Below are positions 10,868 to 61,525 of a stretch of 64,000 bases of DNA, in pieces. The translations under genes were made by a program, and so were the position numbers. A model generated the notes under the pieces. It ran no database searches, was not told where the DNA came from, and saw only the letters and a program-made list of their open reading frames with translations. Within the stretch, counting starts at the first letter, position 1; the number at the start of each line of letters is the position of its first letter. This stretch comes from Botryllus schlosseri (taxonomy: Eukaryota): positions 41,480,001 through 41,544,000 of the forward strand of contig CM119371.1 in the NCBI GenBank assembly GCA_051294905.1. Reading direction: 5' to 3'.

Positions 10868-10874
10868 CAACGAT

Positions 10875-11307
10875 ACGGTACCAGGTAAGATCAGCCACTG
10901 TATTCACGTCACGTCACGTCACGTCATCGAATTACCACCCTTCTTTCAAGTATTCTATGGAAGATGAAACGCGATGCTGTTAGCTGCGATATTAAGTTCC
11001 GCATTTCTGTTGCGCCAGACAGGACGCCTATGTTTAGGGTTAGGGTAAGTTTTAGGGTTATACAGTCACATGCTGAAGTGACGCATGCTGATGTGTTCCA
11101 TGCTGAACTGTCGTTTTCCATTGTGTCGCATGCTCATATGTCGGGCAACCACGGTACCAGGTAAGATCAGCCACTGTATTCACGTCACGTCACGTCACGT
11201 CATCGACTTACCACCCTTCTTTCAAGTATTCTATGGAAGATGAAACGCGATGCTGTTAGCTGCGATATTAAGTTCCGCATTTCTGTTGCGCCAGACAGGA
11301 CGCCTAT
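10875..11307 (+). repeat. 157-bp direct duplication (10875-11031 and 11151-11307) with (CACGT)4 and a TTAGGG-containing spacer
   Basis: The two copies differ at one base (GAATTACC vs GACTTACC). The spacer contains TTTAGGGTTAGGGTAAGTTTTAGGGTTA. Confidence 0.9.
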
Positions 11308-19544: not shown

Positions 19545-20002
19545 CAGGGTTGCAATCAAGTCACACGTCCATCTCACTTATAGTTTCGACTCGAGTCATT
19601 TTCAATTCACCACCGAGTCAAGTCCGAGTCCAAGTCAGCGAGCAGAGGGTCGAGTCCAAGTCATTATGTTGACTGCTCGGTTTCCAGTTAAAGACTTGTT
19701 AAACCTACATTTCATAACTCTGTTATGGTGATATCAAATGGTTCGCATTTACGATATAATCATTCTCCTCACTTAGCAGTTTCCGGCTGCATTTTCAAGT
19801 ATCAGTACAAATAGATGAAATCTCAATATTGAGGTTACTTTACTACTCTTCGAAGTTACAATGAAATGTCGGACTTGGTCGTCTGAGTCTCGAGTCATAT
19901 CACTTGGTCCAAGTCTAGTCAATACCCAGATTGACTCGAGTCGGGTCATTTCGGTATTTTGAGAAAATGACTCGACTCATCAGAAAATCGTGTCTTGAGT
20001 CA
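19545..20002 (-). mobile_element. GACTCGAGTC-repeat hAT MITE family, reverse-orientation copy
   Basis: Starts CAGGGTTGCAATCAAGTCAC, the reverse complement of the family's right end. Many GACTCGAGTC/GACTTG units. Confidence 0.75.
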
Positions 20003-20095
20003 GACACTCGCCGGGGGTAATCGTCAGCGACTAGTGGAGATTTCAAAATTTTGCGTATCAACAATAGTACCACAAAATCATAATTAAACAGTGTA
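20003..20095 (-). mobile_element. Truncated Penelope-like 3' fragment with mutated hammerhead core
   Basis: Minus strand reads GCTGACGATTACCC-CCGGCGA-GTGTC, the same family as 42972-43237. The core is altered and the GAAA half is missing. Confidence 0.65.
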
Positions 20096-20239: not shown

Positions 20240-23200
20240 TCACATAATCCTAGCCCGCATCTGCTTGCTCTTGTACATCTTCTTATCGCGCTTCCTCGCC
20301 TCTCTCTTGTTCTGAATGTCCTCCAGCTTACGCTGCTTGTCCGGATCTTCCTCGTTCATGATCCTTTCCTTAATCGCCTTCTCCTTCTCCTCGCGCTTCA
20401 GCTGCGCCTCTTCCTGACGCTTGGCGTGGGTCAGTTTCAAGAAAGCGAGCTTTACTTTGTTACGGTTTTTTTCCGCTTTCACCTTGTTGTTGAGGCGTAA
20501 CTTTCTCATTTTGTCGGCCATGTACAAGGTCATCTTCATTAAAGGCAGTAGCTTTGAGATGTCTTCCGCCGAAGGCGTGCTCCTGTCACAGTGCATGTTC
20601 AACATAACGTTTAAGGTTTTGGAAGTAGGGGGACGCTCGGTAGGCGGTTCGTCTACGTCGCCAGGTTTTAACCCAGAGTACTGATCCGAAATGTGCATGT
20701 ACTCGAAATACTTTTCGTTCTCGTTAATCACTTTACGGACTTTAGCGTCTAACACGCTTCCGACTTCGCTCCAGATTTCGGCAGCGACAGTCATGCTTTC
20801 CGGTAAATCGTACTTGTCGGCCGGACGCATTTTGTCGACGCAAAAATAGATTAAGTCCTGCATGTTTTTCTGTAAGATGCCGATTGACTTTTTGGCGCCG
20901 ATGGCTAACACGTAGGGGTCCATGTCTTCTAGAGTGACGGTTATCATCACCTGGTGGATAGAAGGAATGTATTTTATCATAAATTCAAATACGAACACAA
21001 ATTTTAGAACACACGAAAATATTGATAGAATTGAGATGGAATCATGCTTGTAATGACTCGAGTCATGACTTGACTCAATTTTTTGATGACTTGAGTCATT
21101 TTCTCAAAATACGGAAATGACTCGACTCGAGTCAATCTGTACATTGACTCGACTTGTACTTGAGTCATTGTGCATTAATCGAACCAAGTCATATGAATCG
21201 AGACTCAGACGGTCAAGACCGACATTTCATTGTAATTTCAAGGAATAGGCTAGTAAAGTAACCACACTGTTGATATTTCATCTATTGGTACTGGTACTTG
21301 AAAATGCGGCCAGAAACTGTTAAAAGTGAGGAAATTAGATACAAACTATTCGATATTAGCAATCAAAGTTATAAAAAGTGGCTTTAACAAGACTTTAATT
21401 GGAAACTGAGCAGTAGGGTTGTCCAAAATTTGGAAAATCTTTAAAAGTCTCTGTGATTGTGACTCATTCTATAGATTATTGATAAAAAACAACAATTAGC
21501 CTGAAAGAAGCTTACAGGAAAGCCGTTAAGATTTCGGGCAAAGCGTTTGAAAGTAGCTGCTCAAGAATGGGCGTGCCACCGACCATAGAACGGCGAGAAG
21601 ACTAGTAATCACATAACCACGGCTCTTGATTGGCTAGTCGGCTATGCTTCAATGATCACGGCAGCAGCAGCTTGCTGATTAGGTGTTGAAGGAGTCTGCT
21701 ACCAGCGGGGGTTCTGCAAGCGCATTGTGGGTAGGTTCGCAGATGATGATTTAAGATTAATTCAGGACATGTTGAGGTACGAAAAAAAATGATGAACAAA
21801 CAACAGCTGCTTCACAAAACCTTTTACGGCATGACTGCTTTATTGTGAAGGAAGCGGCTGTAGCCTACATGCAGCGTTTTCATCGAGGAAAAGCAAAGGC
21901 GCTTATGCAAGTGGTGAACGAATTCCCCGTTTAACCGATTGGGACCGGCTGCAATTTTCGAAAAATTTTGCTTCAATTTTCAAAAACGAAAAACTGTACC
22001 TTAATGGGATTGGAACACGACAGCCAAGGTAGCGTTCGAATCAGAAAGTAAACGCGGATCCGATTGCGCTACTCGCTTTCATTTCGAGCCCTGTGTCTGG
22101 CCGCTTATATCGAGAGCAAGCCGAGAATTCGTTGATGAGAAACGTATTACATTTACTGCACTCTTTATAAACCTTAACATGGATATCTGGTGACATAGGC
22201 TTCTTGTGAATCATATCGGCGAGGAAATCATGATCATGGAGATGGCTCAGTCGATATAATACGCCCTAATATCGCCATTATCCATTAGATACAGTACTGA
22301 CGGTTTGCACAATAAACACGCACCAGGCCGCAGAGTGAATGAGTCATCGGCGAGTGAGCGAGTGACGCGCGTGTATTTATTAGGTAGCGTAGCCTTCCAG
22401 GGCATTTACAAAGCTTATAGAGCACGTAAATGGGTCACTTTAGTATTGATAAACGGAGATTGTCAAGACCTAACCATAAGGACAAACCACAAACGCATAT
22501 CTTAGTTAGTTGGTAGCACTTCATACAAACATGATACACACGTTTGCGCGGAATACACTGCGTGTAGAATTGGTCTTGTTGCCATATATACATCACTATT
22601 AGCTGTTAGTCTGATGTAGATATAATCTTATGGTAATGTACTCTCCACAGAAACAATCTAAGAATGTCAACTACCGATAAAATTCAGGATATAACACATT
22701 ATGTTATGGATATTCGTCCCTGCGTTTGACACTAGTGTGGTAGTCTGCAGGAATTCTCTTCACGATATTCAGAAGCGGCCTTGGGGTGACATAGGCATAA
22801 CTAATGTTGTTTATTTTGACCTTGAAGGTGGAGATTGGCTAGTTCTATTGAAAGAGACAATCCGTAAATGTCTTTCATTACTACAACGTAAGATATATAT
22901 CGTCATACGACAGCTCTTTGTATATCCTGATGCACACTTTTGCGTAGGTATATGCGCTGAGTAATATTGTATTTATTCCGAAATATACTTGACTATTAGC
23001 CATTATTTAGAATCGTATAGGCAACAACTATTCACAGACACAATCTATGAAGGTATATCACTATTAGAACTCGATATATATCCCGTTATGTGACCAGTAT
23101 TCATCCATCTGCTTGAAGCTGGTACGGTAGGCTGCGAGAATTCTCTTCCGGATTTTCAAATGCAACCTTGGGCGATGCAGACATAACTAGTATAGTTGTT

Positions 23201-24912
23201 TTAGCAAGAAAATCAGAAGCTGACAAGCGCTATTCATAGAAACAAACTACAACAACTGGCTATGACGAATACAACCAAATATACGACAGGGTATATGATG
23301 TGTATCGGGAACGCGCGTTTCCACGAAATGATGCGGTCGGCGGATATCTTTGTCACGCGGCCTATCACATAGATTTTGAACACCTTATATGTAACTAATA
23401 TCAGATATGAAGATATGTGTGAACTTGTATGGACACTAGCTTTTCACAGAAAGAAACAACTATGCTCTAAGACGGCTAGAACAAAACATACAGTACGTTA
23501 TGTGAGAGTGGTCAATGACGCGCGTTGCCGAGACAGTGTATTTTGCAACATATTTATCTACGGTATTTGATATCCGATTTCGACGTCTTAGATATAATAT
23601 ATATCAAATAATATGGTATCAATGAACTTGCACAAACAATATCCATTCGCAGAAATGAACAGCAGCGACCTAGCGCGATTAGAACGGGATATATAGTGGT
23701 TCTATTACAGTACGCTTCCCTCGTACCGGCAATGGGTAAAAATACCCACGCCGGCGCCAAACGGTTAAGAAGGGATCCATCATCAATACATGACTTGGAC
23801 TCGAGTCATATTACCATGACTTGGACTCGACCCTCTGCTCGCTGACTTGGACTCGGACTTGGTGGTCAATTGAAATTGACTCGACTTGACTCGAGTCAAA
23901 ACTATAAAAGTAAGATTGACTTTTGACTTGGTTACAACCGTGATATGATGTAGTACTCGCACTATATTCTGTGAGGCCGCGTAAAATATACATATTGGAA
24001 CATCCACATCTTTCACACGGTTATGTCATCATAATCAGTGATACTGAAATACTCGACTAAGAAACAAATCACTCTGGTACTCGGATTTTGCCCAGCCTTA
24101 AGAGTAAGATAATAGAATTATTGATTTCTCACCTTGTCTTTTGTAGGCTTCATTTTATCGGCGATAATCGACACCAGGTCTTGACGCTTCATCAACCTCA
24201 ATTCGACCAGCATGCCTTCCACGCACGCGCGGCCAGAGCACCACAACGTAAAAATATGTTCCGCCTCTTTCGTCATTTGAAAGGTGCTAGCCGCCGTTTT
24301 GTTTTGCGGGTCGTCGCCGATTAACTCAAACTGAGACTCGAGAAGTTCTTTGTGTATTTTAAGCCAGCTGTTCGCGATATTCGAATTCTTGTAACGTCCC
24401 GTCAAGAAATTGATGGCGTACACGAGTAATCCGACACACATCATGATTTCGATATAGTATTTGTCCCAGCTTCTCGCGTGGAGTGGAACATTTTGTATTT
24501 TAAGCTCCGGTTTCCCTTGCTTTTTGCTTTTCGCTTTCTTATTTCCGTTTTCCCAAATCGTATCATCACCATCCAAGCCTTCAAACTCTTCAGGATCTAA
24601 ATGTTCAAATTCATCGCTATCTTCAACCTCGACAGTTGCGTCTTCGTCTTGAAATTCGTCTAATTCATCATCGAATTCATTCTCATCTCCCGCGTTTGAT
24701 GCGTGAGATTTTCCAGAGTTTGATTCACTCTCTGTTGTTATATCATCGGGCTGAGTGTCATCGAAATCCTCGTCAGCCGCCTCATCGAAATCTTCGAATT
24801 CCGCAAATTCGTTGTCTTCCAAGTCGGCTCCGTGTAGATTTTGAGCCAAGGCTCGACGATTGAGCGCCACGAGACAGCACGTGGCGAGTAATATAGATAA
24901 TAGTAATTTCAT
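20240..24912 (-). CDS. CCDC47: PAT complex subunit CCDC47 (calumin), 496 aa, 2 coding exons: 24912-24133 and 20950-20240
   Basis: Signal peptide, acidic lumenal stretch, TM (YYIEIMMCVGLLVYAINFL) and hallmark segments GRYKNSNIANSWLKIHKELLESQFELIGDD and FTLWCSGRACVEGMLVELRLMKRQDL. Exon 2 has YMHISDQYSG and the basic coiled coil KLTHAKRQEEAQLKREEK...EEDPDKQRKLE. Phase-0 GT-AG intron. Confidence 0.95.
21048..23942 (+). mobile_element. GACTCGAGTC-family MITE split (21048-21413 + 23783-23942) by a 2.37-kb insertion in the CCDC47 intron
   Basis: The intact copy at 48910 reads GGAAACCGAGCAG|TCAACACA. Here the left half stops at GAGCAG (21413) and resumes TCAATACA at 23783. Confidence 0.75.
21935..23764. 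mobile_element. piggyBac-like non-autonomous element
   Basis: TTAA on both sides (21931-34, 23765-68). Imperfect TIR CCGATTGGGACCGGC / GCCGGCGCCAAACGG (12/15). No transposase ORF. Confidence 0.6.
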
Positions 24913-25035
24913 TGTGATTACGACGCTGTAAAATTGGTTTGCTACATATGATATTATTATTGCACAACGTTATAGCAAAATAGTTGCATTCAAACTTCGA
25001 GTAGATAATTCTATACGGTATAGTTACTAATCAGA

Positions 25036-30100: not shown

Positions 30101-33100
30101 GTAGTTGAAGGTAATTTTGTCACTTTTTGACGGGATTTCCAGTTCTTTTCCTTATTAAACTGTACGTGGGCGACCGCGTCATAAAATTCTTCATTGTCAT
30201 CCTCTGTAGACTCTCCATTTTCATTATTATCCACATTTTCCGTAAGTTTCTTTCCTGCTTTACCAGTTTTAGCGATCCTTTGAGACTTTCTCTGCGGAGA
30301 TTTCGTCATATCCTTATTGCCATCTGTGTAGTAGTCATCAGTTTGCGAAAGCTGTTCTCTCACATCTTGAGAAGTTAAATCGCCTTCGATACGCCCTTCC
30401 CCCTCAAAACCGCACACAATTTCTTCGTGTAGATTAAGCAAGGTGTCGGTTTTGGAAGTGCTTCCGCTAAACTCAGGGCTGAACTCGTCTATATTATTAT
30501 CCAAATCGGAAACGGCACTGCTGTTCTGATCTGCAAAGTCGTATTTCCTGTTTTTCCTCTCAAAATCTTTGACGCTCGCTTTTCTCATCCTGTCGCTGAT
30601 GTCGTCCACCTTCCCGCCTGTCTCCTCCGTCTCGAATATGGACGATAACAGAGAAGTGCTTCGCGAACGGGTGGTTCTGGACTGAAGCTTCGCTGTCGCT
30701 AACCAAGATTCGAGCCTTTTCTTTTTCTCGCTGAAAGATAGCTCAAATTCGGTTTTATTGCCGAGATGAAAATCTTGTTTGCTACAGGGCAAGACTATAA
30801 TTCAAAAGCAAGGAATTTGAAAATTGTAGAGAAATAACGGGAAAAACTTCACAACTTATATAAATCCACGTAAAATTTAGAGCCAGCTTTTCAACCCTTA
30901 TACTTTGATGCCTGGTAAAGTTTCAAAACAAATTTAATCTTTGATAATCAAAATCAACCCAAAAATTAACCACGAAAAATATACGCCTCTAAAAAGGAGG
31001 AGCCTTCAATCCAATTGACAAATTTGCTGTCTTTTTGATACTACACCTGTTATATGGTACACCAGAGGTCATATTCTTAGAATCCAGTATCGTTACAAAC
31101 AGGGTTATAAAGACTGAGTCGCGATTGTTTGGTGACTTGAATTGACTCGAGTCATTTTTTCAAATATGTAAAATGACTCGACTCGAGTCAATTCCTCTGC
31201 TGACTCGACTGTGCATGACTCGGACCAAGTCAAATGACTAGAGACTAGGACGGCCAAGACCGACATTTCATTATAACAGGAAGAAGAATAGTAAAGTCAC
31301 CACATGATTGCTATTTCGTCTGTCAGTCCTGATACTTGGAAAATAGGGCCCTGAAACAGTCAAGATTGAAGAAAATTACCATATTATGAACGAATAGAGA
31401 TGGAAAAGTGGGCTCGGACATGACTAGACTTATCTTGGGTCCAAACTATAAAGGTGAGATCGACTTGCGAATTGGAGCCTCGTGATTTGGTTACAACCCT
31501 GGTCACAAATAATAACCCACGACAAATTTTACCCAAAATGGACTCATTAGTAAAGTGTTACAAAATCTATATTATGCTGGAGAAAATACCTTCAAAATTT
31601 CTAAATCCTAAATTTTTAAACAAATTTGATGCTTGTTATCTCTCCTCAATGGACAAAGTGCCCAACATCTTGTACTTTATAATTGAGATGTAAACTCGCA
31701 AGACTCACTGTTGATATCCCATGTCTTCCCGTCGCATTTGACGAGGCTGTATCACATCACGCGGTGCGGTAGACGCATGCTGCAATACGCAATACAAACG
31801 ATAAAACCCACGCGATTCCAATGATTGCATTGACCCACCTGTGGGTTAATCGGAGTCATAGGCGCTGGACTCATGGCGGTAGCGGGGGTCATCGGGGTTC
31901 GGGGCCCATCTCCATCCAAATCTCCTTTCTTTCGTCTTGGCCTGCCACGACCCTGGGGTGAGAAATGTTGACGTTGGTCTTTATTATACCCAATAATCAG
32001 TGTTGGGATCAAGTCACAAGTCAATTCGAGTCATAGCACAATTTGACTTGTGTCGAATTTCCAAAGTTTGAGGCATGATTCAAACCATTGCATTTTGCAA
32101 GATGATTACAGTATAGAGCGATTTACTATCAATTATGAATCGAGTAACGAATTTCAAGTTAATTACACCTTAAACGGGGTGATGTAAAAATGAAAAAAAT
32201 CCATGTGGCATTCCGCTTCACTAATAAAATGACTGCAAAATGCACTTTGAAGGTGTGTGGTTGGTTTAAAATTGGCTTTACAAATAGGACTTCAATGCCC
32301 CACGAATTAGCTACTTTATAAAATGCAGAGTAGGCACTAGGCAACCTCACAATTCTTTCATTATTTATTATAGAGCTACCTACTATAAATACTATTATTA
32401 CAATTCAAAAATTTTGAAACAAAAATTCTTCTTGGAGGTACAAAATTTCAATATACAATTGAATAGTATAATCGTATTGAAACGAACCAGAATATTCTCG
32501 GCTGACACTCGTCAGGGGTAATCGTCAGCTACTAGTCGATAATTGGAAAGAACATTGTATATCAACAATATGACGTCACCAGCATGAAAATTCAAGTAAG
32601 AGAGCGTTCAATGTACTATTTTCAGATGGCACACGAATCGTTTTTGTTGACAAAGACTTGGCTGCTGTATTTTGATAAAAGTCGACTCCAAGGCACACAA
32701 ATCAAAGTGTGAACGGCCCCCTCCCAACCACTCGAAATCTGTTACACAATTTCATTAGTGTGCCTTGAACTCGACTTTCATCAGAATATACCAGTCATGG
32801 CTGGGTCAACAAAAAGAGTTTGTTTGCAAAATTGTACATTGAACGCTCTCTTTCGAGATTTCATGCTAGTGACGTCATATTTTGTGATACGATTGTTGAT
32901 ATACAATGTTCTTTCCAATTCTCTACTAGTTGCTGACGATCACTGTATGACGAGTTTCGGCCAAAATATTCAGGTTCATTTCAATTTTCAATATCATTAT
33001 ACTATTCAATCTAAAATTTAGTATTTCAGGCTGTTCTTTTGACAATTTCGCTTACAAACGTGGCACGATCTTACCTCAAAACTACTCTATACTTCGCAAA

Positions 33101-39100: not shown

Positions 39101-42100
39101 GGTGATGCTGGAGGGCGTCCGAGGGCCGCAGCACGAGAGACACAAGCTGCGGCTTGGAATGGGCCAGTTGGGGCGCGAATATGATGATCAGGTCGCAGAC
39201 GCCCATGTAGCAGGCCTCCTTCACCTAAGAAAAGAAGTGTTACAGGACTAATGTGATTCGAGATGAAGGATACAGGAATCATTTTTAAAAATACCGATAT
39301 TAAAATAAGTTAATAAACTTTTTTGTTTTCACTACAATTGGTCACTTCTCACAACACAGAATAGCAAACAAAGCTGAGCATAATCACGATTTACAAAAAT
39401 ATATTCAGTTAGTGTATTACAGAGTCTATTACACAGGGTGGTTGTATGTCAATTCAGCTCGTAAAGAGTAATGCAACTAGACTTGAGTCAATCTGTGTAT
39501 TGACTTGAGTCAATCTGTGTATTGACTCGGCATGTACTCGAGTGATTGCGTATGACCCCGACCAAGTCATATGACTCGAGACTCAGATGGCCAAGACCGA
39601 CATTTCATTGTAATTTCGAAGAATAGTATCATAACCACACTGTTTATATTTCGTCTATTGTTACTTGAAAATGCGATCAGAAACTGCTAAAAGTGAGGAA
39701 AATTAGTATATTCTAAATACGAATCATTCGATATCACCAAACAGAGTTATAAAAAGTGGTTTTGACGAGACTTTAACTGGAAACTGAGCATTCAACGCAA
39801 TGACTTGGACTCAAACCCGGGTCATAATACCATGACTCGGACTGACTTGGACTTGACTCTGTGGTCTGTAGCATTTTCAGGAAAAACAGAAATACATATG
39901 GACATTAAAATAACCCCATGAAGTATAAATGTTGGCATTAATCCATGTACAGCTCAATTACACCAAGCCGACATCCGCTATTGCTGCCAGTGTTCTGCGC
40001 CTGTGTTACATCTGGTCTGCCACGGCTGAGGACATATCAGTGAAAAACAGGCTACTGATACCAATAACCATACACATATCAGTACAACCTTCAAGACTCC
40101 AACCTAGATATCTCTGAGATATATATAGGTACGTTTTTGATTTAAATAGTAATTACGGTGAGTGGAGAGTAAAACTTTCTTGAAAAGTGAAATGTTCTGA
40201 AAATCGCAAATTCAATAATTCTACTTCTAATATAATTTAGTAAAAACCGTGTAGGCCCTACTTGAAACTCTAATTCTATTCGAAGTCAGGAAAAACTGTA
40301 GCTCTAATTCATTTTAGCAATCATTCTAATTCATTAAGTGTAATTTGAAAACACATCTATGTGCTGGGATGCAGTACGTAAAACTGTAATTCATATCTAA
40401 TTTAGGAAAAAAAACTATCTACAATTCTATTTCTAATCTACGAAGAACTGTAACTTTACCTCTAATTTTAATCTAATTTGAGAATGAAATGTGGAGCTAT
40501 CATTCTAATTTTAGTGGAGTATGGAAAAAAACTATGTACTTGAAACGCTAATTGTTGCCTAATTTGAAGGAAAAAACTAGCATCCATTGTACTTCTAGTG
40601 TCATTTGAAAAAAAAATGTTCTTAAAACTCTAGTTATAATCCAACTTGAAAAAAAAGCTGTAATTCTAATATTAATCTAATTTGAAAAAAATTGAAGCTC
40701 TAATCCTAATTTTAATCTAATTTAAGAAAAAAAAGTGCAGTAATTATTCAAATATTAGTAGAATTTCGAAAAAAAACTATGTACTTGAACCTATAATTAT
40801 AATTTATTTTGAAACAAAATAGCTATCATTCTTAATCTAGTGTAATTTAGAAAGGAAAGGACGTAGTTTATTTTTGTCCTTGATGTTTTTGCGGCATATA
40901 CACCGACTCATGATATACATACACACGATCTGCGCATATGCGCAGATGAGTGCATGATGTGCATATGCCGCATGGACAAGGAAGTGCAGATATAGCCTTT
41001 ACGACTTTCTTAGTCATGCACCACCCCCTCCATGCTATCCCAGTAATGCATGAGCGCCAAGCAGGGAAGCCATGGATACCAGTGTTACTAATCAGGTCTT
41101 TGGTCTGACCCGGCCGGGAATCGAACCCACGACCTACCGATCAAGAAGCCGGACGCTTCACCATTACGCTATCTTGATCGAAAAAACTATGTACTTAAAT
41201 CTCTAACCCTAATCTAATTTGGAAAAAAACTAGCTACCATACTAATTCGAATCTAATTTAGACAAAACTATAGCTCCAATTCTAATTTTAATCTAATTTG
41301 AAAAAAAATGCGTAGCTGCCATTCTAATTCGTAAAAGGCCTCTCTTAATACTTTTGGGTGCATGGAATGCGACAGTATGCGCTCCGATATCTCCATGAAG
41401 TCAGTGGCAGTCTGGCGCAGGCGCTGTATCGCGTCTTTGTGCTCCTGTAAACCGGACCGGCCCTCTTCGTCTTGCTGTAGTATGACCGCAAATACGAACA
41501 TCAGGTCCACGTGCAGGAATCGGACGGCCTGCTCCAACATCTGCCAAAGGAGAGAAGTCGCAATGATATTAGTATCTCTCCGATAGTTACTGGCGCTTGA
41601 AAAATAAGGCCAGAAGCTGTCTCAAGGTCCCGAGTCAAAATCTCGCTTTTATAGCTTCGACTCGAGTCAAGTCGAGTCATTTTCAATTCACCACCGAGTC
41701 AAGCCCGAGTCCAAGATGAGTTAAAAATGTCTCATGTTTCGCGTTGTTTTAAATAATGACACTGAATGTATAGTATTTTCCTTGTAAATTAACCCTCAAT
41801 TTCTCATAACCTAATTTAACACATCCACTTGGCATTAATGTAATTCACTGGTGTGTATTTATAAATAAAATTCGCCACGGAATGTAACTTTAAACTTTTG
41901 GGTCTGCCCGCCGACCTACTTTTTGCTTCTTATTTGGCACGCGTGGAAATATAATTGCCCACCCCTGGTGTACAGACATTTCCCATTCACGTGCTTATCA
42001 GAATGATTTAATAGGAATTAAACTTTACTTTTGTTGTAGATATTTCTAGTTCGAAATTTAAGTCAATTTCCATGTTTTGAATTCAGTAACTGTAATTCTA

Positions 42101-45100
42101 ATCTAATCTGAAAAAAAACTGCAGCTCTAAATCTAACTGAATTTGGAAAATCTCAGCAAGCCACACATCGACCAAATCCGTCATTATGTCAAGCCCAAAA
42201 ACTCACATCGTCAGGCACAACGGTTGGCTTGCTAAGATGCATTTTGACGATGGAAAATACGGGCTCAGTCAGGTTGCAAGACGTCAAATCGTTGTGCATG
42301 TACAAGCGAGTTAAACGCTTCAACGCCTGCACCACGTTATAGACTTCTTCGTCGTCGGCGCCAGTGGTAGCGTCAGCAGCCTGAATGCGAGAAGAGAACT
42401 CGTATTAGCAAAAGGGTCAGACAGCGTGTTTGTGGTGAAACACTCTACCTTGTTTTTACAGTATCGAATTAGTTTAGCAAAAGAGGTCACTGCTCACTCA
42501 TGCCTTGTTTGAAAGAAGACATCTCTGTTGCCGTGATAATCACGTACTTATTCATACTAGGTATTATACGCTGTGTACTCCATAAGGAACTAACAAAAAC
42601 TTGTCTCTTTTCACAAGGTAATCTCGTCTTCTCGATTATATACACGCACGGCTGCCTTGCTCTCGCCTAGCTTCGTGGTGCAGTTGGTTAGGCGTTGAAC
42701 TTCTGAATCCAACGATATATTACTTATTGGTTTCACATCCCATTTAGGTCGTGTTATTCAGTTTTGAACATTGAAGCAAAATTTTTCGGAAGAAGCAACC
42801 AGAGCAAACCGGGTAAAGGAAATTTGTTATTTTTTCGGCCATATCAGTTTCATTTCACTTTGTGACAATGCACAGATACCACATGTCAACTAGGGCTGTT
42901 CAAAATAACTCTATTTTGTCAAATTTTACTAGCTACTTGTTAAAATTGTAAGGTTTTCCAAAAACACACTGCCATTTGTGTGCCTTGGAGTCGACTTTAA
43001 CAAAATACACCAACCAAAACTCTGTCAACAAAAGGAGTTCGTGTACCATCTAAAAATAGTACATTGAACGCTCTCTCGTTCGAGATTTCATGCTGGTGAC
43101 GTCGTATTTTGTGATACGATTGTTGATATAGGCCTACATTGTTCTTTCCGATTCTCTACTTGTTGCTGACGATTACCCCTGACGAGTGTCAGCCGAAAAT
43201 ATTCGGGTTCATTTCAATATGAATATACTATTCAATTAAACACGCTCTACACCAGATTTAACTCAATTCCAACCAGTACAAGCAGAGTTATTGGTGTTCA
43301 AAATGTTGGACTTGGACAAAACAGTTTTTACGGCGGCAAATTCTACCCACCGTAAATACTATGATTTGAAATCTAAAATTTTGAAAATCAATAACTTGGC
43401 TTCTATGGGTTGCAATTGAGCCAAATTTATTGCGCATAGTTTTTTCAGGCAAATTAACAAGTTAATGGGGTAGCCAGTCAAACTTGACAAATTTGTATAT
43501 TTGTTTCATTAAATAAATTGAAAATGTTCTTCTACAATAACTCCGCTTCCACTGGTTGGAATCGATTCAAAATTATTGTGCAGTGTTTTTTTTAGGTAAC
43601 CCAACAATTTTATCAAGTAGCCAGTCACATTTGGAAAAAAAACTATTTTGTGATGTGACCAATTGTGATTTAAGGCTTCCACAATGCAAAATAGTATCGG
43701 AACTATAAATCTCGTTGAAAAATTAATTCGTAGTGGCAAGGACTGGATATTTTCAGTACTCAGAGCCCTAGTTCTTATACGTCTCCGAGTAGGTCCAATA
43801 AAACAATATTCCTATCAAGTCTCTGTAAAGTTCCACGAAAAATCGCATCCAACTCACCGCGTCTTTAAATATGTCCAGGGCCAGGTTGAAATTTTCGGCC
43901 CACGAATCGATCACGGTCTGACGTCCGACCTGGGCTTTGGCCGACATGGTGTAATCATTGTCGCACAGGGAATGATACGTCATAGAAGCTTGCTCCAACA
44001 GGTCGATATCAGTATGCTTGTCGATGATGACAGCCAACTGACTCAGTAGGAGTTCCAAGTGTTTCTCCAGTCTACGAGGACAAAATTAGAATCTTGATTT
44101 TACGAAAAATTCAACCAAGAAGTCGATAAAGCCTCGATGTGACCAAATCTTCAATATTTTAGAAAAAAAAATTGGCAAAACCAATCATTTTGGAGTAATG
44201 TCAGAGTGGTAAAATCTAAAGGTGGAGTTAAAATTATTGATATTAACCATGGTTGCAATGACTTGAGTCATAAGTCAACTTGAGTTACGATTTTTGGTGA
44301 CTCAGCTTGACTGGAACCATTTTTCAAAACACGTAAAATGACTCGACAGACACGAAACCTTGTGGCTTGGTTACAACCCTATTAACTTTATTATCGACTA
44401 TAATATTAAAGGAAACTAAATAAAATCATTATATATACCATTTTATTATCATATAGTGATACAATATTATATATAATGTTACACTTGTGAATATTGTGTT
44501 AAATAAATTGATTTTAATCAATTTCAATCCAAATAACAAAGGAGTGGTAAAATCAAAACATTTGATAGTGACCGAAAAAGACCCCTAAAATCGAAATCCA
44601 AATTCTGTCCGCCACAAAACGCTAGGATTTTACCATATCGATGGTAGAACACTCAAAGACATCTGAATCTGAAAGCAAATTTTCACATCAAATGAAATCC
44701 AGAAAAACGTTCAGATTGAAGCTTATCGCTAAATCAAAGGTTCTCGATCATTTTGAGCTGCAGCATTTTCGGCTGAAAGTGTGGTTACACTGATGATAAT
44801 ATGAGTGTTGCTAATAGCTATACAACGTCCTTTGGAAATCTCAATTAGTTGATGACACAACACAAATACCGCCGATGGGTGCCCCTGGAAAATGTTAAGA
44901 GTTTATTTCAATATGAATGCCATCAATTGCCAACACGGGGTATAGGCATATGATAATATTACGGCGTACCTGCTCGACGTGTAAAGCTCCAGGTCGAAAA
45001 ACCTTGGAATCTGCAGCAGCAGTGTGACTTTCTCCTTGTCGACCTGGTACTTGTTAAGCAGCGATGGCAAGGCGACTGCAAAGTGCTCCGTCAACCGCAC

Positions 45101-48100: not shown

Positions 48101-51100
48101 ATGTCGCTCTTTAATTACAATCGCTAACCAACAAACACCTAACGGCATTGTCACCAAGCCATCGAAAGAATTGAGCTAGCGCACGCTAGGCTCGAGAGAT
48201 GGGAGCCAACGCATGCTCGGCTCTAGACGCGATAGTTAGCCAGCGATGATATCTTTCGTACCAGGCCTGTTGCAGATGCGATTGTGTAGGCAAGCGATAA
48301 TATCGTGTGCGCCAATGCAGATGCGAATGTGCAGGCAGCGATGGCACCGGGCCTACTGCTGATGTGATTGTTCATCATGCTCAAGCGAGTGAAACTAGGC
48401 TTGTAGGAGACGCGATAAAGCAGGCAAGCGTCCCAAGCGATGATTGCCGAACGCACGGCAATCAATGACACAATTTCGCGATCATCTCAGCGGGAGATCG
48501 TGTCGCGTTACATTGTGCACAGACATATCTCGTTAATTGGCAACGCGCTTGTAGCTAATTGGCCGCGCGCAATGGGTTACCTCGCTCACATAAGCGGTAG
48601 CAGGTAATGGCGTAAACGGAAATACATTGCGATTCGTTCTAAATAACACAATCGGGGATTATGCCGATTCATGCCGAACCGAATTCTAGGCATGCCGCAT
48701 GCCTAAAAAAATGTCTAGGCATGCCTGGCATGCCTTGCATGCCCAGGTTCGGCGCCTATGCTATCACCAACTGCGTAAGGTTATAAATAGGGCGATTTTG
48801 TTTACCTAAAAAACAGAAAATTTTGACCTAAAATATCAAAATTTTGAGACTTTGTTGACCTCTAAAAATTTAATTTTGACAGAATTTTGACCTCGTTTAT
48901 GCAAATTAGCAGGGTTATATTGACTCGAGTCATTTTCTCAAAATAAGGAAATGACTCGACCCGAGTCAATTTGTGTATTGACTCAACTTGGACTCGAGTC
49001 ATTGCGCATGACTCAAACCAAGTCATATGACTCGAGACTTAGACGGCCAATACCGGCATTTTATTGTAATTTCGAATAATAGTAGAGTCACCACACTATT
49101 GGTATTTCGTCTATTGGCAGGCCTACTGGTAACTTGCAAATGCGACCAGAAACTGCTCATAATGAGTAAAATTAGTAGCCTATATTATAAATGCAAACCA
49201 TTCGATATCACCAAACAGAGTTATAAAAAGTGGGTTTCACAAGATTTTAATTGGAAACCGAGCAGTCAACACAATTACTTGGACTCGGACTCGAGTCATA
49301 ATACCATGACTCGGACTCGACCCTCTGCCCGCTGACTTGGACTCGGACTTTACTCGGTGGGGAATTGAAAATGACTCGAGTCAAAACTATAAAAGTGAGA
49401 TTGACTTGTGACTCGGAGCCATGTCCACCTTTTTATTTCATTTGACCGTTTATGATTCACAATGAGCAGATAACGGGCCATCTACAACGGTAGGCCTATA
49501 AAGTAGGCTACAAGATGTGAAATGATAAGTTCAACGACAGTGCAAAAAAATTTTGACTTTGTCAACAATTTTGACAATTTTTTTACCTAACGATACAATT
49601 TTGACGAATTATTGACTTTTTTGACATGCAAACGCTACAAGCGCAAACATAGTTTGGGAGTGCAATAAATATCACAATTATTTTGCAGCTAGGGTAGAGT
49701 ATGCTATCAGGTTTAAAGAAGTTTAAGAAAACTGAAACTGAACAAGAGCTTCTAATTGACTTAACACATAACACAAAAAAACTCACTCCAATATCATAAT
49801 CAGCAGCTTTACAGCCAGCACGGACACGTCATATTCCTTGTCCACAGTCATAGACACAATGCGGTCCTTGAATCGGCTGGTGAACAGCTTCAAGTCTTTG
49901 GTCATGTCTTCGTGTTGATAGAGTCCGTTCAGGGTTTGGAGACATTTCATGCGCACTTCCTTTTGCTGGGAAATAAATCCGGGATAACGAGTATGTTTCT
50001 ATTAAGAGGGTGCTGAAAATAACTTTTTTACCAGATTCCAGGGATTCACTGTGTAAATGGCTAGGTTGCCTAAAAATTTGCTGCACACTAAATTAGGCTC
50101 AATTCCAGTAGAATCCGACACAGAGCCTATTAAAATTTTTGTAATCATGATAAAAAGTGAAAATTTTTTCATCCAAATTACACTTGTCAACGCCATGAAA
50201 TTATTAAGCTGTCTGCAAAAACGATGCAAAACAAATTTGACGCTATTTCAAACCGTAGAAGCCAAGTTATTTGAGTTTTTCCTTCATAATTCCGGTATTT
50301 TCAATCGTAAACGCTATTTTCGCAAATCCAAAACTCTCAACTGCAATAACATCACTTCTTTGGGTTGGAATTTCGTCCAATTTGTTTTTCAACGTTTTCG
50401 TAGACAGTTCAACAATTTCATGGTTATACCGCAAAAATTTTAAAACCAAATTTCTTCATTTTTTATCATGAATACAAAAATTTCAATTGGCTCTGTGTTG
50501 GCGTATACAGATTGGAATTGAGCCAAATTTGTTGTTCTTGAGTATTAAAGTACTGTAAAATATTATTTGAAATGCTAGTTATAACATATTCTCTCCCAGA
50601 ACAGCTTTTCAATCTTACATGAAATTTTATTAATATCAGTACCTTGTCATGGAGCGTCCACCCCACATATTTCAGATAGCTGTCGGTGAGGAAGACTTTC
50701 GGAAACATCTTCATCCAGACGCCGATTTCTTCCATACAGAGGGCGCGGATGTCGGCCAGAAAGTCACGGTACCGATGTACGAAGATACCCTGAACAATGA
50801 TGTCAGGGTAGCTAATGTAATCAGACAGAGTGATTTTGGTTGAATTTTTTTTCTAATTTCGAGTTTTATTCAATTTCTAAGTTTTTGCGAGTTCATGGCT
50901 AACTCTAATTCTAATCTTTTAGAAAAATATGTGTAGCGATTATCTCAAATATATACTAATTTGGAAAATCTGAAATCTGAAATCTGAGATGGTGACTAGG
51001 AGCCAAGATAAACCAGGGTTGTAATGACTCGACTCGCGATTTTTCGGTGACTCGACTCGACTCAATTGCGCACGACTCGGACCAAGTCACATGACTCAAG

Positions 51101-54100
51101 ACTGGGCCTACCAAGACAGGCATTTCATAGTAATTTCGAGGAATAGTAAAGTCACCACTCTATTATTAGGCCTACTTCGCCTATCAGTACTGGTACTTGA
51201 AATTGCGACCAGAAACTGTTTTAAGTGATGAAAATTAGTATATTATGAATGAGAAGCTTTCGATATCACGAACACAGTTGTAAAAAGTGAGTTTCGCATG
51301 GCATTAACGCGGAGCTAAACAGTCAACATGGACTTGAACTTGGACTAGTGTCAAAACAATATGACTCGAACTTGACTCGACTGCGAATTGAAAATGACTC
51401 GACTTGAGTCGAGTCAAATCTATAGAAGTGGGATTGACTTGTGACCCGGAGCCTTGTGACTTGGTTACAACCCTGAGATAAACCTCCAACACTTGGGTAC
51501 GAATTTTGAATGTAAGGAATACGGACATAATGAGCTCACCTTGAAAATCCCGTTCAGCATACTCTCGATTTCGGACTGCTGGTCTTCAAGCTGTAACAGA
51601 CATCATAGCGATAGTTGTTATAAATGCAAGTTACTGGACACATGCGAAGTTATGGACATATATCACCGGTCAATACTGAGCAAAAGTGCTTTACGTTGAG
51701 AAAGTCAAAATGACTTTTTCGACTAAATTGAGTTGTGATATTGAAGTAGGTGTACAATCTAAAACTAGCAGTCTGTTCATCTTGATCATATTTTGTGATA
51801 CGGTTGTGGATATACAATATTCTTTCCAATTCTCCACTAGTTGCTGACGATTACCCCTGACGAGTGTCAGCTGAAAATATTCGAGATTCTATCAATAAGT
51901 AGGCCTACATATTATTCAGAAGTAGAACAAGAAAACTGATTTCATTAGCTACGCGAGCTTTTAACACCTCGATTTGTAATCTTTTAGCTAAACACCAAAC
52001 TAATACCGTTTTTATTGTGCCTTACAGAGTAACAATAACAATTGTGATGAAAAACTCCTTACATCTTTCCGTTTTTCCAGCAGCAAATCGAGTTTTTCCG
52101 TGGCGCGTTTATTGGCGGCCTTCGCCCTTTCCCCTTCGTACTGTCTCTGCGTATTGTCCAGGTTGACGCTGAGAGCCAACGCCACGTTGACCAGGGCGGT
52201 CATCAGCTTCATAGCTGAAAATATTCAACATTGAGGTCAATGATACAAGTCATAATTTTGAAATGCCCTGGCAGAATACATTCACATTTCAGAAAGCATA
52301 CTTGTACTGATCAAGTTATTTTGATTTTAGACAACTTACAGACAACCAAACGCATACCTGCCAATGTCGCCGTGTGCCGAAAGGCTCGCACTTGCGAATT
52401 GCTCAATTCCGTCAACAGCGTCAGCACGTTGTCCATCATAAACTGATCGTAGATGATCTGGTACTGGCACTGCCTTACCAGGGCCTGAAATACAAGTTTT
52501 TAAAATTAACAGAATATAATTTTTTTTTCAAAATCATCAGAAAATATCCTCAATGTATTATTGTTATGGACAATTCAGTAATATCGACTGCAAAAAATGA
52601 TTCCAAAAACTTAGAAATTGATATGTTGTCTATAAACTTTTGTAGAAAATATGCTCTTGAAGACACTCTTGAAGGTCCATAACTACAATATACAATTGAA
52701 TAATATATTCATATTGATATATATTAGAAAGTATATTGAGCTCAAGAAAGCTTTTCACCTCAATTATTGAAAATTTCATGCCTGTGACGTGATATTTTGT
52801 GATAGGATTGTTGATATACAACGTTCTTTTCCATTCTCTATTCGTTGCTGACGATTACCCCTGACGAGTGTCAGCCGAAAATATTCAGGTTCATTTCAAT
52901 ATTAATATATTACCCGAAATTATGTCTTATACATAGGAATAGCAAATTTCAAAAGGTTTGCATAAGTCGAATGGTAAACTGTAGCTATAATTCCTGCAAA
53001 TACTATAATAATCGTGGGATTCGTGGCATACAAATGCAAAGCCTATAACCTACAGTGTATAGTGTGTTGTGCTATTGATTAAGTGTCATATAGTCCTCTG
53101 CAAGCATCTCTTCTTTTGAATAAAAAATACGCAAGAGGGTGTTTGCTATAACAAATACCTGCACAAAATCCGCAAAGTTTGTCCTAAACTTCTTCAAGCT
53201 CACGCCAGACGCAATAAGCGGGTAATCACCACTGTCCTGTAATAGCAAGACAACATGTTAACATTTTCAACGTTTAGAGTCAGACTCGGGTCACGATTTT
53301 ATGGTGACTCGACTTGAGTCATTTTTTCAAAGGCGTATATGACTCGATTAGAGTCAATTTGTGTATCGACTCTACCTGTACACGAGTCATTGTGCATGAC
53401 TTGAACCAAGTCATATGAGTCGAGACTAGGACGGCCAAGACAGACATTTTCTTGTAACTTGGAAGAGTAGTAAAGTCACTACAAAATTGGTGTTTTGTCT
53501 ATCAGTCCTGATACTTAAAAAATTGGCCTGGAAACTGTTAAGTAAGACGGAGGAAAATTACGGCATTATGAATGCGAGCCATTCTATATCACTCGAGGAT
53601 AATTGAAAAGATGGATTTACCCGAATTGAACTCGGACTCGAGTCCCAACACTATGACACAGACTTGACCCTCTACTCACTGACTTGGACTCGACTTGACT
53701 CTGTGGTGAATTGAAAATGACTCGACTTGACTCAAGTCAAAACTATAAAAGTGAGATTGACTTGTGACTCAGAGCCTTGTGACTTGGTTACATCCCTGAC
53801 TCAAATACTTGACTCAAAGCCTATTACTCGATACTCTACCGAAAGAAAAGGTCTCCGAACGTTGCTATGCCATTCCACAAACCTCGTCAAACTCTTCAGT
53901 CATCCTTTTGATGACGTCTTGAAAGCCTTCGGAGGCGTCACGCAACATTTCGGCCGTCACAGTACCCTTGCATCCGGAGGCGTTGATAAAGAATTGAATC
54001 AGGTCCAGGAGAGCTTCGTTACGGTCAACCTGCGGCAAAAAAACGCAATAAATTGAAGACTCTGTTACAGACTTGTACAACTAAGTGTAAGTGTAAGTTC

Positions 54101-59118: not shown

Positions 59119-60606
59119 TTACTGGGAGACGACAATTTCCAAGTCATCGTCGCTCGAATGCGAGGTAGCTGGCATTCTGATTTCGACTTGAGGGCTAGGG
59201 GGTGTCGAGTGTGATTTAACTTGCAAGCGTGGCTTGCCATCTTCAGGAATGAACACGGATGAATGAGGAGACAGGTGTTTTTTAGAGGTGACTTTTTCGG
59301 AAGACACATATTGTAAGTCACCGTCACTAACACATCTGGCTGTATCAATTGATGACGACCTGTTGATACCGATTATAACTGAATCACTGATAACAGACCC
59401 ACTGCTGATTACAATATCTGAAAGCATGTCTCCTGTTAAGTGTAGTTGTTCATCATGGCACGATCCCAATTCATATCTTTCCTTCAATATTCTTCTCACA
59501 GCGTCGCGAAGAGGCAATTGCATTGACGCAATTGCGACATGGTCATTGCTTTTCAGAAATGACTTCTTTTTATGCATAAAAACTGACACTGTAACAATTT
59601 GTTGTGCGATATCTTCATTCCTGATGGATAGAAATTCTAAATTTAACGCGGGATTGAATTTGATGATGGCCGAATCATTGCTCCAGAATGATTCACGACC
59701 CGTCACAGTGTCACGTATAGGTGAATCCTCAGTACCATTTGTGTCAAGTTTAATAACATCTGATTTAGAAGTGACTTCTTCCTTGGTTACATCGTGATTA
59801 ATGCATCCTTTGATGTGTAACAGAATGGATGAATCTTTTTTGGACAGTTCGAAAGTCTGCAAACGCGTCAAGATTAAATTCGATATCGAAATTACGAGCT
59901 TAGAAGTTTTTCTGTTGTACTGAAATGCGAGGGTCAGGTATCCAGCTATGCCATCATCGATTGAAGAGCCTAATGACGTCAAACTCTGCAATGACGAACA
60001 GGACTTGGCTGAAAATTCACCAGAAAGACTTGACGACAGTGTCCGTAGAGTCACTGGTTTAATACCGCCGTCAAATTCGGATTCGTCAGATATCGTTAGT
60101 TTTGGTAAACTGCCTGAATAGCCGACATCAATATTTTTGTTTTTTCGACCACTTTTTGTGGTTTTGTGATGCGTTTTTTTGACAGAACGTTTATCAAATT
60201 GTACCGAGCTTTTTACATGAATTCCGTACTTTGAAAGCACTATTTTACAACTTTTATGCCGCGTTACTTGAGAGACAGTTTGGCCTTTGTGACTTTCCAC
60301 AGTTAAGTCCCCACCGGCTGATAACAGATATTCCAAACATTCCGAATAACCTTCGGAGGCTGCGTAATGCAAAGGCGTGTATCCGTTAAGGTAATCTTTT
60401 TTGTTACAATCTCCCCCGTGCGTGACGAGTAGTTTTAGTAACTCCAGTTCTCCGTTATTGGCTGCTTCGTGCAACGCGTTCCATCCAAACAATCCTATTG
60501 AGTTTGGGTCTATTCCGTTATCCAGGGCTGTTTTGGCGCCATCGCGATCTTCACAGTGAACGGCTAAATGCAATTCGTTGTCTTGTAGATTATCTGAGTC
60601 TGACAT
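59119..60606 (-). CDS. Intronless 495-aa protein: three N-terminal ankyrin repeats, Ser-rich linker, degenerate C2-like domain
   Basis: Ankyrin consensus NELHLAV, GWNALHEAANNGELELLKLLV and GYTPLHYAASEGYSECLEYLL. AGYLTLAFQYNRKTSKLVISI ... QIVTVSVF ... NDHVAI ... LPL resembles a synaptotagmin-type C2 fold. First ATG at 60606, with acceptor-like AGs just upstream. Confidence 0.85.
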   Translation of the reverse strand: MSDSDNLQDNELHLAVHCEDRDGAKTALDNGIDPNSIGLFGWNALHEAANNGELELLKLLVTHGGDCNKKDYLNGYTPLHYAASEGYSECLEYLLSAGGDLTVESHKGQTVSQVTRHKSCKIVLSKYGIHVKSSVQFDKRSVKKTHHKTTKSGRKNKNIDVGYSGSLPKLTISDESEFDGGIKPVTLRTLSSSLSGEFSAKSCSSLQSLTSLGSSIDDGIAGYLTLAFQYNRKTSKLVISISNLILTRLQTFELSKKDSSILLHIKGCINHDVTKEEVTSKSDVIKLDTNGTEDSPIRDTVTGRESFWSNDSAIIKFNPALNLEFLSIRNEDIAQQIVTVSVFMHKKKSFLKSNDHVAIASMQLPLRDAVRRILKERYELGSCHDEQLHLTGDMLSDIVISSGSVISDSVIIGINRSSSIDTARCVSDGDLQYVSSEKVTSKKHLSPHSSVFIPEDGKPRLQVKSHSTPPSPQVEIRMPATSHSSDDDLEIVVSQ

Positions 60607-61525
60607 GAATACCAACTATATATGATCTGCACAGAGAATGTAGTAGAAGATGAAATAGAATTTGAATACCCAAAAACAAGCATAAAGTTAGCTAAATAGG
60701 CCAATAATTCTGTCTTGTACGGAAGTCTCAAAGCGATGATTTACGTTGAGACTGTGCTGAATGATGGTAGTAATTGTCGGATTACATATTTTCATTCGAT
60801 CAAGACACACGATTGTAGGCTATACAATGCAATGATGGTTGAAAGTTTATTAAAAAAGTGAGGTCAAAACAAAAATGTAACAACAAAAGCATCACAGAAC
60901 TATCGGACCTGAGCAGCATCGTTATAACAATAGTCTACAATATAATTCTGAAAGCAGTAGGCCCATTGAAGATCTATTAGCGGAAAAAGAGTAATCAAGG
61001 TATATTGTTGCACATATTCTCTAACATAGGAGGACACACATATATTCACTATTATTAGAGAGAGAGAGTCTTTAATTTCATCCAACCAAAATACACAACA
61101 ACACACGGCAATGATGATGGTGGTACATAAAATATGCATGCACTGCACACTTGCACAGCATTCGGTATTACTATTAGATAGGAATGATGATCGATACGAC
61201 CTTGGGTCAACTAGTCTGATCACACCCGCATTAAACAGGTACACCTGACTCCAAACAGTCTGGCTGTAAAAAATGTTAGTTAAAGAAAGGAAAATGAAAG
61301 AAAAAGCACACGATGATAGCAAATGATCAAAGAATTATTATAGTACCCAGTACGGTAGGTTATTTATTCATTCATTCATTTGCTAATTGCCATAAATGAA
61401 AACCAAGGCGAAGTAATTCCCTATATTATCCCTCAGCCTTAAGTAGGCTATTACTTTGGTTCTGTTCAACTAGGGCTCAAGGGCTGCAATTTACTTTGAA
61501 TATCCATTAACTGCAGGCCGCAGCC

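Follow-up and report, generated by a model that had tools for sequence, protein, structure and literature searches.

A putative hammerhead ribozyme with a pseudoknotted helix II in a Penelope-like retroelement of Botryllus schlosseri

Hammerhead ribozymes of Penelope-like elements (PLEs) belong to the most numerous ribozyme motifs in animal genomes, and both their activity and their role are unsettled: they cleave poorly in vitro, where insertion also proceeds without them. The published minimal hammerhead ribozymes (min-HHRs) of these retroelements possess a hairpin helix II of 6-8 bp and have been proposed to form dimers through a palindromic helix III (PMC4209133). The canonical PLE hammerheads in File S2 of PMC8557442 carry hairpin stems II of 5-7 bp, and a 2017 review (PMC6155905) describes the PLE min-HHRs as having no tertiary interactions. 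Two hammerheads from other sources are relevant here. In the crystallised pseudoknot (PK) hammerhead, also known as RAGATH-1, a 6-bp pseudoknot takes the place of helix II (Zhan et al. 2024, PMC11300833), and mutation and rescue experiments showed that a type II hammerhead with a 1-bp stem II requires its 6-bp pseudoknot for fast cleavage (PMC3088659, published in 2011). We have analysed a motif at positions 43165-43208, forward strand, of a 64,000-nt stretch of the genome of Botryllus schlosseri (GenBank assembly GCA_051294905.1, contig CM119371.1, positions 41,480,001 to 41,544,000), hereafter the window. The motif lies in a PLE copy and appears to combine features of these systems. A preliminary description of the locus, made from its sequence, had seen in it a minimal, dimer-type hammerhead with an extra 6-bp loop II pseudoknot.

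The whole motif reads GCTGAC-GATT-ACCC-CTGACGA-G-T-GTCAGC-C-GAA-AATATT-C|GGGT, with the predicted cut (bar) between 43204 and 43205 and C43204 as position 17. The core boxes follow each other in the order of a type I hammerhead, i.e., CUGANGA (43179-85), GAAA (43195-98) and U-H, here U-C (43203-04). Helix I, ACCC/GGGU, has 4 bp. The distance from A9 to G12 is only 9 nt, closed by the pair G43186:C43194, which leaves no hairpin helix II; the single unpaired base of this region (43187) sits after G10.1, not before it, and the following GUCAGC (43188-93) is the exact complement of the upstream GCUGAC (43165-70). The complete core, 4-bp stem I, 1-bp stem II, palindromic stem III (AAUAUU) and exact loop II complementarity given in the preliminary description were thus all found in the sequence. 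Counted by helices, the motif offers 4 bp for helix I, 1 bp plus a covarying pseudoknot for helix II, and a helix III that is possible only between two molecules: because AAUAUU cannot close on itself, this helix must form between two motifs. The first CUGACGA of the motif (43166-72) was also considered as the core and rejected, as positions 10.1 and 11.1 would then be U and C, and the sole helix would stand 6 and 2 nt off the core.

Four copies of the motif with at most three mismatches are present in the window, at 32486 (-), 43165 (+), 51843 (+) and 52847 (+), with 0 expected from 100 shuffles. Both 6-mers are retained in all four, as had been noted before; this is conservation only, and no covariation can be drawn from the four copies because the 6-mers do not vary within the window. 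The copy at 43165 is the only one there without changes in the core or in helix I. Two more degenerate copies were recognised, one inside the (+) element copy at 32744-33015 and one at 20003-20040 (-). The copies at 51843 and 52847 are indeed co-oriented, 1,004 nt apart; the proposal that they could dimerise in one antisense RNA is unsupported, because both are mutated.

The pattern is abundant in the genome (495 Mb in 219 contigs scanned). Its 26-nt core gave 11,369 matches with at most two mismatches, against 0 for a reversed-pattern control. A pattern of the 9-nt-spacer layout that excluded the main family at two positions outside the pairing gave a further 1,383 matches, against 5 in the control. 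One locus from another PLE family of the same genome illustrates what such families share. It carries the U3-A8 variant of the core and reads GUGCC-GUUA-ACUC-UUGAAAA-G-A-GGCAC-CC-GAAA-AGUCUU-C|GAGU, equal in layout and different in sequence.

Partner 6-mers were compared in the first 30 loci and in 20 places picked by their loop sequence only. They differ yet stay complementary (GCUGAC/GUCAGC, UGUGCC/GGCACA, CGUGCC/GGCACG, ACUGAC/GUCAGU and ACUGGC/GCCAGU); AUUGGC/GCCAGU was found as well, and five of the six pairs are kept in UGUGCC/GGCACC and UGUGUC/CGCACG. For a pair count we used the 96 instances from the window and from loci L001-L030 and L063-L112 that fit a core-anchored pattern, which correspond to 61 distinct sequences; window copies whose core no longer fits were omitted, and so were 30 loci from a loop-excluding pattern, because broken loops are what that pattern selects for. 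In the 61 sequences, pairing reaches 80.3% for the six pseudoknot pairs. The whole tested structure is 83.1% paired versus 69.1% in shuffles (0 of 500 reach 83.1%), a control that overstates the significance, since the families are related by descent; with the partner slid by one to three columns, pairing falls to 21-51%. The covariation score is 0.340, compared with 0.133 in shuffles and at most 0.111 in the slid alignments, so that the covariation across genomic copies to which the preliminary description had pointed as a check is present.

Several Watson-Crick types occur in three of the six pseudoknot pairs: GC (18 sequences), AU (8), CG (5) and UA (5) in pair 1, GC (27) and CG (18) in pair 2, and AU (18), CG (16) and GC (2) in pair 5. 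All six pairs form in 22 sequences, five in 19, four in 11 and three or fewer in 9. At least five of the last nine (L011, L082, L093, L107 and one L112 copy) have a non-family upstream strand, as expected if the copy is cut off there. Helix I has four of four pairs in 39 of the 61 sequences and changes from ACCC/GGGU to ACUC/GAGU between families, and the linker begins with G in 50. The spacing is fixed across families: a 6-mer, a 4-nt linker, the 4-nt helix I strand, the core, G10.1, one unpaired base, the second 6-mer and C11.1. Helix III varies in sequence and is palindromic (AAUAUU, AAGCUU, AACGUU) or nearly so (AAGUCUU); in its 7- and 8-nt versions (AAGUCUU and AAGUUCUU), one or two pyrimidines separate the AAG/CUU arms, which is not enough for a hairpin loop. 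Judged from these comparisons, the pairing between the upstream strand and loop II is a real conserved feature, covarying across several families and one metagenome contig, and it is not specific to the main family.

The metagenome contigs came from one sample set, and their scan returned 43 hits: one clear (L140), two probable (L126, L131) and 40 due to chance or unrelated. The contig of L140 has UCUGAC/GUCAGA with six of six pairs, helix I with four of four and AAGCUU as helix III, whereas the other 42 hits, mostly chance, have zero to four of the six pairs at that spacing. L131 reads UCUAGC/GCUAGA with a 5-nt linker and AACGUU. The predicted pseudoknot architecture therefore also exists outside the assembled genome.

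Some variants stand apart. A multi-copy family (L067, L072, L108) has the core CUGACAA, in which C3 faces A8 in a non-standard pair, and keeps the pseudoknot UGUGUC/CGCACG together with helix I; it may be inactive, or tolerant of the C-A pair. In the family GGGAAACCC (L065, L066, L069, L074) the 9-nt helix II region itself folds into a mini-hairpin, and the helix III palindrome is broken. The 9-nt-spacer pattern with two loop positions forced off the main family gave 77 matches against 22 in the control; these are mostly decayed main-family copies and chance matches, such as a repeated UUGAAAAG(A/G)CUAUCAC motif without helix I.

The element around the motif is a PLE. Elsewhere in the genome the repeat seen at 42965-43237 extends further upstream, and this copy is ~92% identical to young genomic ones. 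Positions 43020-43064 are the last 15 codons of its open reading frame (ORF) and 43065-43067 the stop codon TGA, the reading in frame being limited to this part; the TGA ends 97 nt before 43165, in accord with the ~95 nt behind a GIY-YIG-type stop codon reported earlier. A full-length copy (L114; G000:C1:13417600-13421900) contains two motifs at a distance of 2,692 nt, in a direct repeat whose units agree to 99.8% across 850 nt. Between the motifs lies an open frame of 860 codons, 848 of them from the first ATG to the stop, with a match to the reverse transcriptase (RT) family RVT_1 above the Pfam cut-off (E 7.8e-9). Its C-terminus, VVYEYRCHCDCGYVGRT, gives a weak GIY-YIG match (E 0.027, 15.2 bits, against a Pfam cut-off of 22.6), and a GIY-YIG-like motif, VVYEYRC..YVGRT, is visible there. 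The stop lies ~108 nt before the motif core, and the predicted cut 14 nt ahead of the first ATG of the next unit. The two motifs flank an 848-codon ORF for an RT and a putative endonuclease, i.e., they occupy the repeated element end, or pseudo-long terminal repeat (pLTR), in which PLE min-HHRs are found. The earlier assignment to the PLE min-HHRs with palindromic helix III is thereby borne out by the palindrome and by the RT/GIY-YIG-type ORF.

Other hallmarks of PLEs are present too, namely partial tandems (pLTR), copies truncated at the 5' end, inverted neighbours and a tail of 30-40 bp. Most genomic copies are 5'-truncated at varying points, with a 3' end common to many. At 32457-33015, two element 3' ends are arranged head to head, and 33 nt separate their 5' ends; this arrangement is frequent genome-wide (L005, L010, L020, L022, L028), and in L031 it takes the form of a perfect inverted repeat of 1,480 nt around a 25-nt spacer. 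Copies end either 33 nt or ~71 nt past the predicted cut, and in the full-length copy RNA and contig reads stop at the same two distances (L114:3412-3460); these break-off points look like internal reverse-transcription start sites that define the PLE tail. PLEs have been described as having 5'-truncated copies with a common 3' end and inverted adjacent copies (PMC8557442), and the present element matches the published picture by its 5' truncation with a common 3' end, head-to-head copies and fixed tail ends (PMC8557442, PMC11167929).

From the anatomy, element context, copy number and pseudoknot covariation we infer that the motif is probably the hammerhead of an autonomous, highly amplified PLE, predicted to be catalytic, with the pseudoknot serving as helix II and a helix III of the dimer type. 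In the proposed type I fold, helix I has 4 bp, helix II would be reduced to G10.1:C11.1, helix III would be a 6-nt palindrome, and the loop bases following one unpaired base would pair with the 6-mer located 4 nt upstream of helix I. The pseudoknot helix would stack on G10.1:C11.1 through the continuous 3' strand 43188-43194 to give a 7-bp helix II; base 43187 would span the deep groove in the manner of loop 1 in an H-type pseudoknot, and the 4-nt linker would tie the top of the pseudoknot helix to the top of helix I. By nearest-neighbour energies no local helix is stronger than that of the pseudoknot (-7.4 kcal/mol versus -5.4 for the competing hairpin). By analogy with the crystallised PK hammerhead, the pairing most likely replaces helix II. 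The preliminary description was hence right about a conserved pairing and less so in regarding it as an extra contact on a 1-bp helix II, since it probably is helix II (PMC11300833); likewise, the combination of a 1-bp stem II with a 6-bp pseudoknot is present here and had a type II precedent that was already tested (PMC3088659). Cuts at two successive motifs would free a unit-length RNA of 2,692 nt that starts 14 nt before its ATG.

A number of observations weigh against this interpretation, in addition to the overstated shuffle control. Conservation of the core, G10.1 and C11.1 in 61 of 61 sequences was fixed by the search patterns and is not evidence. The most abundant second family has only five of six pseudoknot pairs (U.C mismatch), and in the family GGGAAACCC four of six are kept beside a separate 3-bp mini-hairpin. 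Where main-family copies have decayed and carry two loop changes, their upstream strand is unchanged; neutral decay would give the same. Not a single Rfam hammerhead model was matched at E up to 10, either at 43000-43400 or at 12 loci of other families. In energy, the active fold (pseudoknot -7.4 plus helix I -2.4 kcal/mol) is no better than an inactive fold of two hairpins (-10.5 kcal/mol), and an AAUAUU duplex is worth only -0.2 kcal/mol. In cofolding, the minimum-energy fold of the dimer retains the inactive hairpins, a result that is not decisive, since the programs cannot model pseudoknots.

The RNA data weigh on the same side. Three raw-read runs and one contig set were examined at the upstream junction of the full-length copy L114, and a position was taken as a molecule end if at least five molecules began or ended there, making up at least a fifth of the depth. 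No position passed in the three raw-read runs (depth ~140-660), the predicted cut included, and the depth is equal on both sides of that cut. The preliminary description had proposed mapping RNA 5' ends at 43205; with zero ends at the equivalent site, self-cleavage in vivo is unsupported. The depth of ~140-660 is confined to the last ~200 nt of the element and is ~0 over the ORF, the two strands contribute reads in equal measure, and of the X23 reads 96% continue into unrelated flank. These reads are read-through of dispersed fragments in other transcripts, not element transcripts; as element transcripts are almost unsampled, the runs cannot exclude cutting of genuine element RNA. In addition, every genomic copy examined spans the predicted cut and continues for 33 nt or ~71 nt beyond it. 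The template that was reverse-transcribed must therefore have been uncut or re-ligated, which agrees with the PLE of Anolis, where hammerhead mutants had no effect on insertion in vitro (PMC11167929).

These last findings would also suit a relic, i.e., a former hammerhead that no longer cuts and whose conserved knotted fold is a structure that the RT uses for recognition or positioning close to the internal sites of initiation in the tail. The cut-spanning copies with their two fixed 3' ends and the lack of RNA ends at the site fit this explanation. So does the published work: internal RT initiation defines the tail, hammerhead mutants leave in vitro insertion unaffected and RNA-seq ends are absent at the Anolis cut site (PMC11167929), and PLE minimal hammerheads are weakly active in vitro (PMC4209133). 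On the other hand, the complete catalytic core and a cleavable C17 are retained in separate families, the known compensated U3-A8 variant among them, the RNA runs sampled almost no element transcripts, and in vitro cleavage was seen for the Anolis hammerhead, the protein of the element being present in the reaction too (PMC11167929). We consider a relic unlikely.

It is still less probable that GCUGAC/GUCAGC is an inhibitory or switching hairpin which keeps the monomer inactive until it is released, for example by dimerisation or protein binding. The pairing encloses the core and the 5' strand of helix I in a 17-nt loop, it occurs in the minimum-energy fold predicted without knots for the 101-nt context, and covariation alone cannot separate an activating from an inhibitory helix. 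Yet it sequesters no catalytic base and no strand of helix I or helix III, and without it helix II has only 1 bp. The 4-nt linker, single unpaired base and 6 bp are fixed across families, which fits a precise three-dimensional role of the PK kind, and in the hammerhead with a 1-bp stem II disruption of the pseudoknot reduces activity (PMC3088659). The switch had been offered as an alternative in the preliminary description; it has become less likely because the competing hairpin between core and loop II is confined to the main family. A chance resemblance, in which two small hairpins of the 3' untranslated region (CUGAC/GUCAG and CCGAA/UUCGG) happen to spell hammerhead boxes, is very improbable: the minimum-energy fold of the monomer consists of exactly these two hairpins and Rfam returned zero hammerhead matches, but the first hairpin is absent from other families, whose loops differ while the hammerhead layout persists, the second follows automatically from conserved hammerhead positions, the motif lies where PLE hammerheads are known to lie, and the pattern counts far exceed their controls (11,369 versus 0 and 1,383 versus 5).

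Coordinates of the motif, of the PLE copy that carries it and of the further motif copies are collected in Table 1.

Table 1 Features of the hammerhead motif and its host element in the window
Feature	Positions	Strand	Basis or remark
5'-truncated PLE copy, 273 nt: last ORF codons, 3' untranslated region, hammerhead motif, 33-nt tail	42965..43237	+	
C-terminal remnant of RT/GIY-YIG ORF	42965..43067	+	compared with full-length ORF ends
Pseudoknot helix, 5' strand GCUGAC	43165..43170	+	pairs with 43188-43193; covariation across families
Linker GAUU, 4 nt	43171..43174	+	first G faces unpaired base 43187
Helix I, 5' strand ACCC	43175..43178	+	sequence
Core box CUGACGA (C3-A9)	43179..43185	+	sequence
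Helix II region, 9 nt: G10.1, unpaired U (43187), GUCAGC (43188-43193), C11.1	43186..43194	+	
G12-A13-A14, palindromic helix III AAUAUU (43198-43203), C17	43195..43204	+	sequence
Helix I, 3' strand GGGU	43205..43208	+	sequence
33-nt tail after predicted cut	43205..43237	+	equals first 33 nt of full-length unit (L114); ATG 43219-43221
Decayed motif copy	32486..32529	-	GAGA for GAAA; first base of helix I 3' strand changed; lies in the head-to-head pair at 32457-33015
Decayed motif copy	51843..51886	+	C11.1 to U; helix I broken
Motif copy, G1.1 to A	52847..52890	+	sequence

Searched at gathering scores, the whole window matches zero Rfam hammerhead families; only chance or hairpin-like matches were obtained. 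Adjoining the degenerate motif copy at 20003-20040, a CUGAUGA...GAAA...UC pattern match was seen at 19938-19983 (-), for which convincing helices were not found. The window also contains an unrelated interspersed repeat of ~300-350 nt, present at 39500-39865 and in about 10 other places (e.g., 48963-49317, 21124-21412 and 19609-19909), with copies 72-82% identical, and tandem units of ~80-240 nt at 40374-41331. Open frames of host genes were recognised for a protein with a Mind bomb SH3 repeat (8606-10903, -), for CCDC47 in two pieces that are probably exons (20240-21103 and 24118-24969, -) and for ankyrin repeats (59119-60615, -).

Compared with the PLE min-HHRs (PMC4209133), the motif is similar in its type I order, its short helix I (4-5 bp in the published ones) and its palindromic helix III implying dimers, and it likewise resides in the repeated end of a PLE, occurs in thousands of mostly truncated copies and has a U3-A8 variant in sister families. 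It differs in having 9 nt between A9 and G12, also in the 1,383 further matches, and in a helix II that uses an upstream strand. Among the listed places in the supplement of PMC8557442 we saw canonical PLE motifs and long-spacer Naiad ends ('HHR_core'), and no 9-nt-spacer case. With Poseidon, a PLE from Anolis carolinensis (Frangieh et al. 2024, PMC11167929), the element shares a hammerhead that overlaps the region of the ORF start, a tail of 30-40 nt that two internal RT start sites define and the absence of RNA-seq ends at the cut. The Anolis cut is located downstream of the start codon, at a distance of 26 bp, whereas here the first ATG follows the predicted cut by 14 nt; a pseudoknot is not mentioned in the available part of that paper.

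In its working the motif would resemble the PK (RAGATH-1) hammerhead: there, too, the loop following CUGANGA forms 6 bp with a strand upstream of helix I (PMC11300833). That strand belongs to the loop of an additional hairpin, helix IV, and the linker of the PK hammerhead forms a minor-groove triplex. In contrast, the partner in B. schlosseri is plainly single-stranded and only 4 nt away from helix I, helix III is of the dimer type and the host is a eukaryotic retrotransposon; by eye, a helix IV was not seen upstream of the motif in the three main families. The ribozyme of PMC3088659 resembles the motif by its 1-bp stem II and 6-bp pseudoknot. It is unlike the motif in being a type II permutation in which loop I pairs with the 3' tail after stem II, in its bacterial and metagenomic origin and in its action as a monomer. 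No PLE hammerhead whose helix II is pseudoknotted was found in the available portions of PMC4209133, PMC6155905, PMC6765202, PMC8557442, PMC10085705, PMC3088659, PMC11167929, PMC11300833 and bioRxiv 10.64898/2026.07.22.740005, a coverage that leaves out the likeliest source, Lunse et al. 2017.

Tentatively, these motifs might form a hammerhead subclass of their own, type I and dimer-dependent, with a helix II that is wholly knotted to a plain strand upstream; helix IV would be lacking, the linker would measure 4 nt and the cross-over in the knot 1 nt. Were this the case, the stem-loop descriptors used for PLE surveys could not detect such motifs, and retroelements scored as 'hammerhead core' only or as hammerhead-free may hold active ribozymes of the knotted kind. 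The predicted cut would, moreover, leave a 14-nt leader before the start codon and so link cleavage to the translation of uncapped RNA. The family is also a warning that descriptor-based surveys which demand a stem II hairpin under-count retroelement hammerheads. With ~44 nt and natural compensatory variants, the motif is a compact design that lends itself to testing.

Phage and metagenome hammerheads have already provided examples of a pseudoknotted helix II, a crystal structure included; its combination with a PLE, not described in the papers examined, suggests that the hairpin of helix II can be lost in a retroelement lineage and the helix re-formed as a pseudoknot. As far as can be judged from its predicted structure, the B. 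schlosseri motif is PK-like in its working and stands in the position of a PLE min-HHR, and one defining feature of each is missing from it: the hairpin helix II of the latter and the helix IV of the former.

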